This document shows positions 50,601 through 56,180 of a stretch of DNA of 64,000 bases, piece after piece (position 1 is the first letter of the stretch; each line of letters opens with the position of its first letter). Source of the stretch: Balanoglossus misakiensis (taxonomy: Eukaryota; Animalia; Hemichordata); assembly GCA_040954595.2 (NCBI GenBank), contig CM082596.2:3775025-3839024 (forward strand), given 5' to 3'. Made by a program: the position numbers and the translations under genes. The notes beneath the pieces are model-generated. The model made no database searches. It saw nothing but the letters and a program-made list of their open reading frames with translations, and was not told the DNA's origin.

Positions 50601-53600
50601 TTAATGACGATGGAATGCAATTTCCTCTCTGGAAAAATGACACCAAGGGTTGTGACGGATTGGACATGTCGCCTGAAACAGGAAAGCGAGAATATTCATA
50701 TGTTACCGCCACTATTTTCATTAAGCTACTAGTATGACAAAATCAATGGTACATGGAAAAGCAGAGGACAATAGTTGCTCGGTTACCCACCTATCATAGC
50801 ATATGTAAATGTATCTTGATTGACAGCAATGGGGAATGGTGAGAAGACAGACAGCCTGACATTCTGCAGGGCAAGTTTACTCTTCAACGTGACCTGTAGA
50901 CAAACAAATAAACAACACATGGTTAACACCAATTTAAATGACTAATTTATCATAGCAAAACCACGTTATTGATTACCTTACTCGCTGGCAATCTCAATGT
51001 AATCCTATGGGAAGAGACACATGCGTACAAGTACGCACAGGGAAACAGGTAAATCCACTTACTTTCACAGTAATTGATGGGATAGAATCCTCCTCATCTA
51101 CCTCCACATTATTTGCTTGCTGAAATGAAAACCAGGCAGAAATTATACTAAACACGGTTTATTTTATTCCAAGAAAGCATTACCTGTAGGTTAGTCGCAT
51201 TATTACCTTCCAAGATTTTAACTGTCGAGGTACATACTACCTTAAAGTTAACCCATGATGTGATACAATATATGATGTGATTCCAAATCACCATTTAGTA
51301 TGTTGATTTGAGTGATGTGTGTATGGTGCAGTTGGAATGGCTATGTATTAATAATATGCCAACAAGCCAAAATCATGTGGTCAAAGAATTCTGTTCTGTA
51401 ATGGCTATGCAATCACAGCCTCTCCACACACTGACAAATATCTGTGTTTCAAGATCAGGATGCATGTTCTGCGATACCAGGTTCGTTGCTTAAACTGCCC
51501 TTTGCAAACACCAAATAGTCTATCATACACAAAGGAGCAGCAACACCTCAACACTGCAGTAAAGATTGCAGTTGCAGCACAACACAAATGGCCAACCACA
51601 TAAGGTAACTGCTGCATCACACTGAAGCGTGTATTTTGGGCTTGCAAGCATGACATCGACAACATCACGCAATTTGGCGAGTGACAGTGATCACAAAGGC
51701 ATAGTAAGGACGACGTAAAAAACATCACAAGGCATTACCCCACTGCTGCCATAAGGAGATAGGGATGTGGGCCTTCCAAGATTGGATAACAGGTCCACAC
51801 TGAATTCTAAGGGAACGTCCTGTTGGTATGAACATAGGTGACAGGGTGACAGAAATACGAACATGCACTGTCATGCAAACAACACAAAACACACATGTGG
51901 GAGAGCTTTCATGCAAGGGTAGTACACAGACAGGGCAGTGTGTCATGCAAGGGGGGGGGGGGGGCTCTCATTTTTGTTGTTGAGTTGAGTTGACCCAGAT
52001 GTGGGCAACACGTCATGCATCTCTTCATGCAGATTACACACACTCAAATGACAGGACAAAAGTGCCAAACATGTACATACATACATACACTCAGACAAGA
52101 CAGTCTTATATCCTGACTGCATTTCAGAAAGAAACCACCAGTAATCTACCAAAAAATACACGTGTGGTTGGAACAGACCAGCAGTGATAAACAATTGACA
52201 GACCTATATATCGCATTTTGCACAACACCTTGAATCCTCCAACTGACCACACTGAATGCAATTTTTGCTTTTGTTTGTTAAAATACTGCACACACAAAAA
52301 ACCAAGCAGATTTGTGCAGTGTCTAAGCTCAATTGAAACACGGGTGTTGAAGATGGACACACCATCATAGAACTGCACACAAACCCAGCAAAGCTTAACT
52401 TCCAATTAATCCAAGTTAATTATTATTCACACGTGCACTGTGTCACAACCCAGTAAAGTTAGTAGCTGCAGTTGATAAATCATGCATCAGATGTAAAAAA
52501 AACATTGTTATTCCAACTCAAATTAGATCACTAGGGATCTTTACATGCTTGAAAAAATCCTCTTTCAATATCTTGGAATGTAAACATCAAAAGTCACCCA
52601 GACTTTCCTGTTTTAGTTGTTGTTAGTGCATTATAATAATGATTGGTCTGCAATGTCATTTATGTAGAACATTTGGATTGTAAGTATGAAAGCCTTAGCC
52701 ATGGATAGCAAATGGGTGACTTTTTATGTTTCTGAAATCTGCAATGAAATGGGGGAAAAAAGTGCAACACAGCACGCAAAAAAGATGGGCATCTATGTTA
52801 ACCTTTGACCTTACCCATGAATTATCAGGTGCAGAACAGTACTTGGAAACCTTCATAAAAAATAAAACAGAAGCTGTCATGCACAGAAGCGACTAGAAGC
52901 AGCAGCAGCACATGCATTGTGGGTATTCCTTTGCTCCTACGTGGGAATGTGGTAAAGCATCCACTGCATGGCATTTTGGGTGCAGTAGTAACAACCTGCG
53001 TTTGGGGTGAATCCTATTGCAAATGAAATTAGCAATTATGCAAGCTCAAGATGAAAAAGTCAAAAGTCTACAGTAAAAAAACAGGGAAAGATTGAGATTA
53101 CTTAAGTTGGGCACACAGTGGAATTAAATTTGGATTTTTTGCCCTATCAAAATGGACTGAAATGAAATGAATGTGATAATAACACAATGAACTCCAATCC
53201 CTTGAAACCAGCACCTTGATGATTTTATAAACCCCAGCAATGATGTCTCACTGGTGAATGTTCCTGACACCAAACGCTCTCACTTACCGAGGTATTATCG
53301 AGGTTTGGAGGTACTGATACCACTATCTCCAAATCATCAGCCTCTTTTCTCTTTGGTGCAATATCTAATAATGAGAAGAAAAAATGTAATAGAATTCATA
53401 GAGTTTAGGTTTTCCCAACTGTGTATATAACTGTTCATCTGACAGACACACACTATTCAGACAACAGTCAGAAACTACAAATCTTTATAGTTGACAACAC
53501 AGAGCATACACTTCTCATGTTCTCAAATTTCGATAAGCATGCACTGCATGTCATATCATGAACATTCTTGTTGGAAACTCACCGACTCCTTTAGCCGACG

Positions 53601-56180
53601 CTTCTTTAATGGAACGTTGCAGATCTCTCATCTCGATGTCTAACTCATTGTAGTTTATTTCTCTAGATTCCGGGGCTGGGGTGACAAACAGCGAGGGATC
53701 CGTTCCGAGGTAGCAGCAATTCACGTGACCTCTTTCACTCAGTGTTGTAGTCACTCCCTTTAAATCTCTGTGGGATGAACACAAACACAGATGAGTGGTG
53801 ATGAAAACATGTTCTGCACATGTGACAAGGGTAGTGCCCTGCTTTGACCAACCCCCCTCCCCCTTGAATTAATGCAGTGATGCCTTTTTATGATAGTGAT
53901 GGATCTTCTAATGTAATCACCTATCAATGTGCCATACATAATTATCAGCAAATGAAATAAATCCCTTCATATGATGATCAACAGACAAGATTGTCGCAAT
54001 CGCAAACTTTGAGTTTATGATTCTGTAAACACCACTGTACTTACTGAAAGTTCCCCACTTTAATAGAAACCGGTACATGTTCCAGTGTTGCAGCCCATTT
54101 CAATGTCAGATCTTCATATACAAGCAATGCCTTGGTATGTGTACAGATTATTGTCATGATACATCCTTCATTTACTACAAAATAAAATAACGAGAAATAT
54201 ATATTTGTTACGTTCCCATTCTCAACATTTAAAATGACTGACAAAATCGAGTCTGTTAAACTCACATCTGTCAAAACTGTTCTGTATTCACAGAAAATGT
54301 TCATAATAAATTTGTAGAAAGTTTTGTGAATGTAACATCCCAAAGAGATAAGAAATTTAAACTCACTAGATGTATACGGTAGAAAACAACTTGGATTATA
54401 GTCTAGTTTCTTCATATACCGCAGTGAAGCATTTTCCTTAAGTACAAATAGATTTCTTTCACCTGTTAAAAAGAAAAATGTTAGTCAGATACAATAATAA
54501 CTATACTGGTACTAGCAGTTTTTATTATGGAAAATCATCCGGGACTGGTGCTGGGTCAAACTTGTCCATGTTCATTGATTATGGTCTGCTGAATTAATAC
54601 CAATGTCTTTTCATAGTCAACATATTCGGCTGAACCCCATCCACACTTAAAGTTTACTTACCTAAAATTAGAATTGAAGGTGGTGCATTGACGAAGTTGA
54701 CGACTGCAATGTCTAGAGCTTGTTCACCAAGATTAAAACTACCGTCCATCTACAAATAAGACAGAACAGTTCAAATTAAGAATTTTGTCAGAAGACCATT
54801 TTACATCCTCTGTAAAAATGATGGAAACCTTGTGTTACAGCTGAAGTGCAAAGCTTCAAATTTTAACTTTCAACTTCAATCAGATTACAGAAATGTTGAC
54901 TCCAAAACAAAGACTGCTTACACTTATTTTCTTTCCTTTGGAAATCTTCTGTGACTCCTCCTTGGCATCAGAGTCAGTGGCCACGGCTAGTACTTGGTAT
55001 TTGTACAACTCGACCAGGCGACTGGACGACACGGTCACAAAGGAGTCCGTTCTCTGGATGTACTTCAGAGGGCCCGGTATGAGGAACCCCGGCAAGAAGC
55101 GACTGAAGGCAAAGCTCTCTTGCTCAAAGACAGACACAGCGCCATCCATACTTTGCACGCAGATGAAATCTTTACCTGTAAGCATGTGGCAAAAAGTATA
55201 GGACTGGTTAGACAGTCAGAATGCTTATATATTGTACACTTAATGCAGGTCAATGCAGATGTACTGTAAGAACTGTTCAGCCGAGAGATACAAAAGACAT
55301 GTATTATAACTCTGAGTATATGTATTCACTGACCTTTGACCCCTCCAAATGGTCCATATGTCATGTTGTATGAAGTTCTCTGTAAATTGTGCTCGTATAT
55401 AAAATTGAGTTGATACTGGCTACCATGTTCCACAGCACCGGTTAAAGCTAAGAAAAAAAGCGAAAATACACAGAGATCTTGAGTATTGATAAGACATCAA
55501 TGTAATCTTAAGTTTGGTCCACTCACATTGCACTAAGAAACCATGGTTGAAGAAATGAAATATTTGGAAATGGCAAAAAGTTAACTCACCTCCAATACTG
55601 TAGACTACTAATTTTCTTGGATGCAGAATAGCAAGGTGTATATTTTCATTTGCACTTGAGAAAAAAAAGAAATGTTCCACTGTTAATTACTTACACACAT
55701 TTTACAATACTGTTTGTGTATGTGTGAATCCTTATCTACTGGTGATATATTCAAACACAAAACATTACTTACGATACAAATCTTCCAGCTTCTATCTGGA
55801 GAATTGGATACTGTAGCTGAGTTTCCAACATGACATCCTTTGGTCTAGAACCTTCTTTACTATGATCCGGTTGAAAAATTCTCAAGAAACCATGGTAACT
55901 CCCAACAATGACTTTATCTGAAATGAACAAATCATTAAACTCTCTTAAGAAATGACACAGCAATAATTGTAAGGTGACCTGCCAGATTGCCTTTAATGAC
56001 TTCTTAACTATCTTACAAAACATGTAAGCTTGTATTTTTTCAGTTACAAATGACTACCAGTAACCTACCTAGTCCACTTGCACTGTTATCAATATTGGCC
56101 ACACACAGACACCCTTGGTCGTATTCTTCATCAGCTCCTGCATTGGTGTACCACCAGTCACGCGCCTTGAACAAGGACAT
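47676..56180 (-). CDS. BBS9: Bardet-Biedl syndrome 9 protein (PTHB1), BBSome core subunit, >20 exons
   Basis: N-terminus MSLFKARDWW...EEYDQGCLCVANIDNS; then DFICVQSMDG, FEQESFAFSRFLPGFLIPGPL, YLGTDPSLF, RYRLQSD, QFRAIQRRLLTRFKDKTPAPL, GWEEATDSAVTHLLRTCLAK. A Pro-rich tail ends in TAA at 47678-47676. Confidence 0.97.
47939..48026. mobile_element. ~90-bp MITE-like element (same family) in the last BBS9 intron
   Basis: AACCCTTTCATC ... AACCATGGCGATGAAAGGGT. Confidence 0.72.
48881..48960. mobile_element. MITE-like element (same family), degenerate
   Basis: TTTAACCCTTTCAAC...ATGGTTTGGTCCAAT.TATTGTT...GTAAAGTTGG aligns with the 60262 copy. Confidence 0.65.
51739..51819 (-). CDS. Candidate 81-nt alternative cassette exon of BBS9
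   Basis: CCAACAG|...|GTAATG boundaries, 27 open codons (DVPLEFSVDLLSNLGRPTSLSPYGSSG), phase 0/0 matching the host intron. Confidence 0.55.
52815..52850 (-). CDS. Candidate 36-nt alternative exon of BBS9
   Basis: TTTTATGAAG|...|GTAAGG boundaries, encodes VSKYCSAPDNSW, phase 0/0. Confidence 0.5.

Follow-up and report, generated by a model that had tools for sequence, protein, structure and literature searches.

A predicted 36-nt cassette microexon and a UGCAUG array in the long BBS9 intron of the acorn worm Balanoglossus misakiensis

Introduction

Does the one unusually long intron of the BBS9 gene in the acorn worm Balanoglossus misakiensis hide regulated exons, and if so, how many and under whose control? 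In vertebrate photoreceptors, genes for ciliary trafficking are known to contain short, regulated exons. For a 64,000-nucleotide stretch of contig CM082596.2 (GenBank assembly GCA_040954595.2, forward-strand positions 3,775,025 to 3,839,024; hereafter the window, in whose numbering all coordinates are given), a sequence-only reading had proposed that this intron conceals a cluster of three frame-preserving alternative exons of 18, 36 and 81 nt, accompanied by nine copies of the Rbfox-type motif UGCAUG and adding residues after the beta-propeller of the protein. Here we ask which of these exons stand up, whether the motifs exceed chance, and which reading best joins the two.

Results

An intact BBS9 gene with one long intron

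The BBS9/PTHB1 gene runs from 56180 to 47676 on the minus strand. With isoform X1 of Ptychodera flava as query, tblastn recovered an intact frame of 971 residues from 21 exons, none of the proposed cassettes being needed, and the window exons match the closest homolog throughout; over the exon at 55173-54922, identity is 95% to P. flava, 90% to Glandiceps and 85% to Saccoglossus. The closest homolog carries all five PTHB1 Pfam domains (propeller, GAE, platform, hairpin and helical), and the best PDB matches are BBS9. The intron at issue, 53287-51120, had rightly been singled out as long and in phase 0: it measures 2168 nt, about eight times the length of any other intron of the gene, the remaining 19 ranging from 96 to 287 nt. 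Two constitutive exons, both placed in the intact frame by tblastn, bound it, a 77-nt exon upstream (53288..53364, minus strand) that ends after the first GAE strand, and a 57-nt exon downstream (51063..51119, minus strand).

Some further features of the gene and its surroundings deserve mention in their own right. The protein ends in a Pro/Ser-rich tail of about 140 residues (48373-47676, minus strand), which is predicted to be disordered in the P. flava model. The next intron (169 nt) contains an exon-like AG..GT stretch (51004-50977, minus strand) that is not frame-preserving and that we rejected as a BBS9 exon, the gene reading through intact without it. Three scallop species have a 9-residue optional insert in the propeller, at the junction corresponding to window position 54922, with the V-S start that donor read-through would give. 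Downstream of BBS9 lies a small secreted Cys/Trp-rich gene (45443-44490, minus strand), which we take to resemble dermatopontin-type proteins.

A candidate microexon with counterparts in other ambulacrarians

All three proposed exons do have AG/GT ends, a length divisible by 3 and no in-frame stop. Symmetry and freedom from stops are no evidence by themselves, since the intron holds 186 AG..GT stretches that are frame-preserving and stop-free. Splice sites were scored with a weight matrix built from the gene's own 20 introns, a crude measure given that it draws on 20 sites only. By this measure the 36-nt candidate (52815..52850, minus strand; peptide VSKYCSAPDNSW) has the best splice-site pair of the 186, and equally good decoys arise 0.14 times per intron length. 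It is separate, AG/GT-bounded and frame-preserving, and lies within the microexon size limit of 51 nt or less given in the relevant part of PMC12064062.

The same 36-nt candidate has a close match in P. flava, whose isoforms X1 and X2 are one 12-residue insert apart (VSKYCSTPDNSW), exactly at the junction where the 36-nt exon would be spliced in; 11 of the 12 residues of this X1-only insert are identical to the peptide read from 52850-52815. Isoform pairs differing by 10-12 residues at the same junction were also found in Glandiceps, Acanthaster, Patiria, Asterias rubens, Asterias amurensis, Amphiura and Apostichopus, so that both forms are recorded, as database isoform models, in eight named species. 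Holothuria has the insert, and an unnamed cluster-mate is without it.

Our comparison covered 171 homologs of at least 600 residues, made up of the best 120 of 499 matches and the cluster members for 20 of these 120. Extra residues at the junction occur in 13 of the 171, all of them ambulacrarian; 144 have none, 13 could not be anchored, and one bird model with nine additional residues was set aside as an alignment artefact, its upstream region being missing. Within this set an insert of 8-12 residues is present at the junction in nine ambulacrarian species and in no alignable protein from outside Ambulacraria. Saccoglossus, five sea urchin species, two crinoids and amphioxus show no insert among the records listed, which is weak evidence of absence. 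A degenerate scan of metagenome contigs for the 36-nt exon returned 0 stretches, and a search for short fragments spanning the junction gave 35 candidates, none of them scoring.

In all nine species the main insert starts with V-x-[KED]-Y-[CFL], a pattern to be read with some caution at its first position, as an initial V is also what donor read-through produces. In the window the 36-nt exon is separate, because read-through of the upstream donor gives a different peptide; read-through is also disfavoured in the sea stars and Holothuria, where a V-Y start would imply an A at donor +5, while the inserts of Amphiura and Apostichopus could be of that origin. Judged by sequence, the 36-nt exon is real and its 12-residue product matches the optional insert of other acorn worms, and both BBS9 forms are almost certainly spliced in B. 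misakiensis. The optional inserts of sea stars, brittle stars and sea cucumbers, known as protein only, are likely homologous to that product. The proposal of hidden alternative exons thus holds for its 36-nt member, for which relatives have annotated alternative inserts, and finds no support for the 18-nt and 81-nt members discussed below.

Isoform X2 of Apostichopus carries a second, unrelated 8-residue insert at the junction of the main one, possibly a mutually exclusive exon; the junction therefore tolerates more than one option.

A non-random array of UGCAUG motifs

The nine sense-strand UGCAUG copies of the sequence-only reading were all recovered as minus-strand TGCATG (at 51862, 51872, 51910, 51944, 52014, 52026, 52481, 52878 and 52911), with two on the other strand of the intron (a 9:2 bias). 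The rate in the rest of the window predicts 1.09 sense copies (Poisson P 2.2e-6), the other 19 BBS9 introns hold two in 3421 nt, and random placement of the window's 73 sites gave six in 170 nt or nine in 1060 nt in 0 of 20000 trials. Of the 19 CATG words in the intron, 9 are TGCATG, and the other 10 match a background expectation of 10.9, making the excess specific to TGCATG. The cluster is non-random, as had been claimed. The next base is A in seven of the nine (P 0.012), and in vitro Rbfox logos favour A or C after the motif. The flanking intron thus has the excess of sense (U)GCAUG that serves as a criterion for Rbfox targets.

The array falls into three parts. Two copies, with a putative function in splicing, lie 27 and 60 nt upstream of the 36-nt exon (52878..52916, minus strand) and flank a run of five YGCY words (52891-52910) situated 40-60 nt upstream of it; a single copy from the motif scan lies 328 nt downstream (52481..52486, minus strand); and six are packed into 170 nt (51862..52031, minus strand) between the 36-nt exon, which they follow at 783-947 nt, and the 81-nt candidate, which they precede by 42-206 nt. 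Only the two upstream copies are thus within about 200 nt of the 36-nt exon, the other seven of the nine being 328-947 nt downstream. Rbfox bound within about 200 nt upstream of an exon leads to skipping and bound downstream to inclusion, and distal sites may act via RNA bridges, according to the relevant parts of 10.1101/840272 and PMC7404189.

With modest confidence we favour a single ancient 36-nt cassette microexon in the BBS9 intron, controlled by Rbfox and skipped in Rbfox-rich cells. Rbfox is probably the regulator of the exon; should it act, a net effect of skipping seems slightly likelier than inclusion driven by the distal cluster, because the only UGCAUG copies within 200 nt lie upstream, where the published map predicts exclusion. 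Rbfox on these two copies, next to the pyrimidine tract, would cause the exon to be skipped where Rbfox is abundant, for example in nerve or muscle cells, and included elsewhere; the two resulting forms of BBS9 would be told apart by a GAE-domain loop predicted to lie at the surface. Repression of the MBNL type would be added by the YGCY run. As for the six-site cluster, it most likely acts at a distance on the 36-nt event, perhaps brought close by intron folding, or else silences some weak pair of splice sites, for instance that of the 81-nt candidate. Against this explanation, six of the nine copies are much farther from the 36-nt exon than the usual 200 nt and immediately precede the 81-nt candidate; in addition, the records listed for Saccoglossus, sea urchins and crinoids have no insert.

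The motifs might instead serve other ends (poison exons, intron retention or another factor), with a real 36-nt exon under MBNL- or eMIC-type control. The five YGCY words would fit such control, and a 127-nt stop-containing stretch (53067-52941), with the highest joint splice score in the intron, above that of the 36-nt exon, and with two UGCAUG shortly after its donor, is a possible poison exon. However, acceptors as strong as that at 53067 arise by chance 0.48 times per intron length, poison-exon sites in the intron show no sign of use, and two UGCAUG abut the only proven exon, the 36-nt one; we regard this division of roles as quite unlikely. As a separate observation, orphan acceptors at 53067 and 52738 (minus strand) score 11.1, as strong as real ones, and an in-frame stop follows each.

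The 18-nt and 81-nt candidates

The remaining two members of the proposed cluster of three are not supported: both lack the G at donor +5 that is found in 19 of 20 constitutive BBS9 donors, both score at decoy level, and neither has a homologous insert. Differences of +6, +18, +27 or +39 residues at the junction occur in none of the 171 homologs, both P. flava and both Glandiceps records are without a +27 insert, and seven 5-mers taken from the two peptides are in none of the proteins compared.

The 81-nt candidate (51739..51819, minus strand) is outside the top 12 of the 186, with a donor score of -0.9 and 2.34 equal decoys per intron length; with splice sites no better than decoys and no homologous insert, it is not counted as a cassette. 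A homolog search with the 43-codon open frame that contains it gave two candidates, none scoring; a PASTA-repeat protein, the one match among 1.84 billion representatives, was put down to chance, its score being summed over repeats. The stretch is 51% GC and, among 638 overlapping stretches free of stops, belongs to the 4.7% with the most coding-like composition, as judged by a score that we rejected as a discriminator because the real 36-nt exon does poorly by it (ranking at 84%). That the 81-nt candidate is a real exon seems doubtful. A reading with two regulated cassettes, in which the 36-nt exon is joined by a rare, lineage-restricted 81-nt exon repressed by the six-site cluster, would draw on the position of that cluster, which ends 42 nt before the 81-nt acceptor, on the mildly coding-like composition and on the different second insert in Apostichopus. 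We hold it to be rather unlikely in view of the poor donor, the decoy rate, the +27 insert seen in 0 of 171 proteins, the failure of two sequence searches to find a homolog and the little power of the coding score.

The 18-nt candidate (52996..53013, minus strand) ranks eighth of the 186, and decoys as good arise 1.09 times per intron length. Its donor is indeed weak, as had been remarked (its score of 2.0 is exceeded by 18 of 20 constitutive donors), +6 inserts are absent from the homologs, and we take it for a probable decoy that is very unlikely to be a real exon. It had been read as an SRRM4/eMIC-dependent neural microexon. In keeping with this, the 36 nt before its acceptor contain three UGC words and a branch-point-like word, a long pyrimidine tract lies farther upstream, and UGC does fall between branch point and AG; but the strong donor and long branch-point-to-AG distance that are features of eMIC microexons in the relevant part of 10.1101/2024.09.17.613571 are missing. 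TGC is common throughout the intron (30 per kb). The full three-cassette model that includes this neural microexon can point to the same UGC words and upstream pyrimidine tract; it has to accommodate the weak donor, the decoy rate, the short branch-point distance and the lack of any +6 or +18 insert among the 171 homologs, it also requires a real 81-nt exon, and we find it highly improbable.

Repeats and RNA folding

That the motif cluster is a functionless transposon or repeat remnant might be suspected from the exceptional length of the intron and from an inverted repeat that spans 150 nt. Within the 64-kb window, however, there is no second copy of the intron, and the marks of a transposon or MITE (multiple copies, terminal repeats with target duplication, a transposase frame) were not found; the longest open frame has 109 codons, and only tiny tandem repeats occur. 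A CATG-rich transposon, the alternative that the sequence-only reading itself had raised, is therefore unlikely, and with the 9:2 strand bias and the other CATG words at background, a functionless remnant becomes barely credible.

The inverted repeat may form an intronic stem of 18 of 19 bp (52582..52731, minus strand; arms 52713-52731 and 52582-52600; predicted pairing 0.83). A match as good was seen in 5 of 300 shuffled sequences and in 6 of 58 natural stretches, among which the stem itself may be counted. A 201-nt fold of the region has a z of -1.56, and Rfam returned only a chance match, below threshold. Adjoining the stem, a predicted long-range helix pairs 52570-52582 with 51204-51216 (0.67), at a score of 12 that is the commonest best score in shuffles and thus at chance level. 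Between them, stem and helix would leave seven UGCAUG and the 81-nt candidate in a loop. We treat the stem and helices as leads only. A possible RNA bridge from the six-site cluster to the 36-nt donor (52723-52743 with 52028-52048) was discarded at a predicted probability of 0.0.

Beside the stem, 52570-52581 is complementary to a 12-nt word shared by 51771-51782, in the 81-nt candidate, and 51206-51217, about 85 nt before the next exon, a docking/selector-like layout that is at chance level by score; the predicted pairing is 0.67 for one partner and 0.0 for the other. The joint proposal built on this layout is a three-way switch (skip, 36 nt or 81 nt) run by competing RNA pairing and the Rbfox array: the docking stretch 52570-52588, stacked on the stem, would pair with a site within the 81-nt exon or with one 85 nt ahead of the next constitutive exon, the second pairing would loop out the 81-nt exon and seven UGCAUG, and Rbfox occupancy would pick the outcome. 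We consider such a switch a long shot. Were it true, a splicing site in the GAE loop, in use since the common ancestor of hemichordates and echinoderms, would give rise to cell-type-specific BBSomes, in parallel to the separate microexons of vertebrate BBS8 and BBS9.

Protein context of the insert

The placement of the insert after the beta-propeller needs a correction: the propeller occupies residues 1-359 (Pfam), and the insert does not follow it directly but lies about 65 residues farther on, inside the GAE domain. We used an alignment-based model of P. flava X1 (mean pLDDT 75.9), a single-sequence fold reaching a mean pLDDT of only 33.8. The model has a helix at 374-393 followed by the first two GAE strands (408-413 and 449-458), and the insert, at 423-434, falls in the loop between these strands, where residues 424-440 have pLDDT below 50 and are predicted to be disordered. 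The gap left by the insert maps to human BBS9 425/426. In the relevant part of PMC7018513 the helix and GAE domain form the BBS1-pairing module, and IFT38 is proposed to make contact at the meeting point of the neck and the paired GAE domains of BBS1 and BBS9. The invariant Tyr of the insert and its location in the BBS1-pairing domain, near the proposed IFT38 contact region, suggest that it probably tunes a partner contact and not the fold.

Some shark and bird records skip the ortholog of the window exon 51119-51063, downstream of the insert site, so that the loop region of this site varies by splicing in vertebrates too.

Discussion

The 36-nt BBS9 exon appears to be an independent case of a short optional exon in a ciliary gene, one that dates, on the comparison of isoform models, to the hemichordate-echinoderm ancestor. 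Its mechanism is not new, and the exon itself is already implicit in RefSeq models of relatives. Among the matches listed for BBS9 microexon, Rbfox and isoform literature, there was no paper on this exon; the main-text portions of PMC5703972, on Esrp targets in sea urchin and amphioxus, do not name BBS9; and nothing relevant on Rbfox in sea urchin or amphioxus appeared among the matches listed. If the Rbfox link holds, the exon would offer a ready test of Rbfox function in non-chordate deuterostomes, and two deuterostome branches would have added optional loops to the same BBSome domain.

The nearest known systems are the RefSeq pairs of P. flava (XP_070570388.1 / XP_070570389.1) and Glandiceps talaboti (XP_077997146.1 / XP_077997147.1), which differ at the same junction by the same or nearly the same length, and through which the exon was already implicit in the automatic annotation of relatives; these pairs come with no regulatory or evolutionary reading, and neither has an 18-nt or 81-nt insert. 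Among regulated microexons, the 33-nt exon of Snap23 (RBFOX2, QKI, MBNL) shares the size class, the motif families and the position-dependent rule, but its Rbfox sites lie within 300 nt downstream and promote inclusion, whereas the near sites of the BBS9 exon are upstream and most of its sites distal (relevant parts of PMC12064062). As in SRRM3/4 (eMIC) neural microexons, UGC words precede both the 18-nt and the 36-nt acceptor, but the 18-nt candidate has neither the strong donor nor the long distance from branch point to AG reported for that class. Exon 2a of BBS8/TTC8 (30 nt, photoreceptor-restricted) is likewise a short in-frame cassette, adding about 10 residues beside a loop of a BBSome subunit (relevant parts of PMC7917623 and PMC7018512). 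In those accounts it differs from the BBS9 exon in subunit and lineage, in having photoreceptor enhancers and not a UGCAUG array, and in its known tissue pattern, the BBS9 exon being described by sequence. Vertebrate BBS9 has a 5-residue option of its own, likewise short, in-frame and in the GAE domain, by which lamprey X1 and X2 differ and where human BBS9 has five extra residues; neither its loop nor its intron (window 50564-50427) is that of the 36-nt exon, and it is therefore an independent gain.
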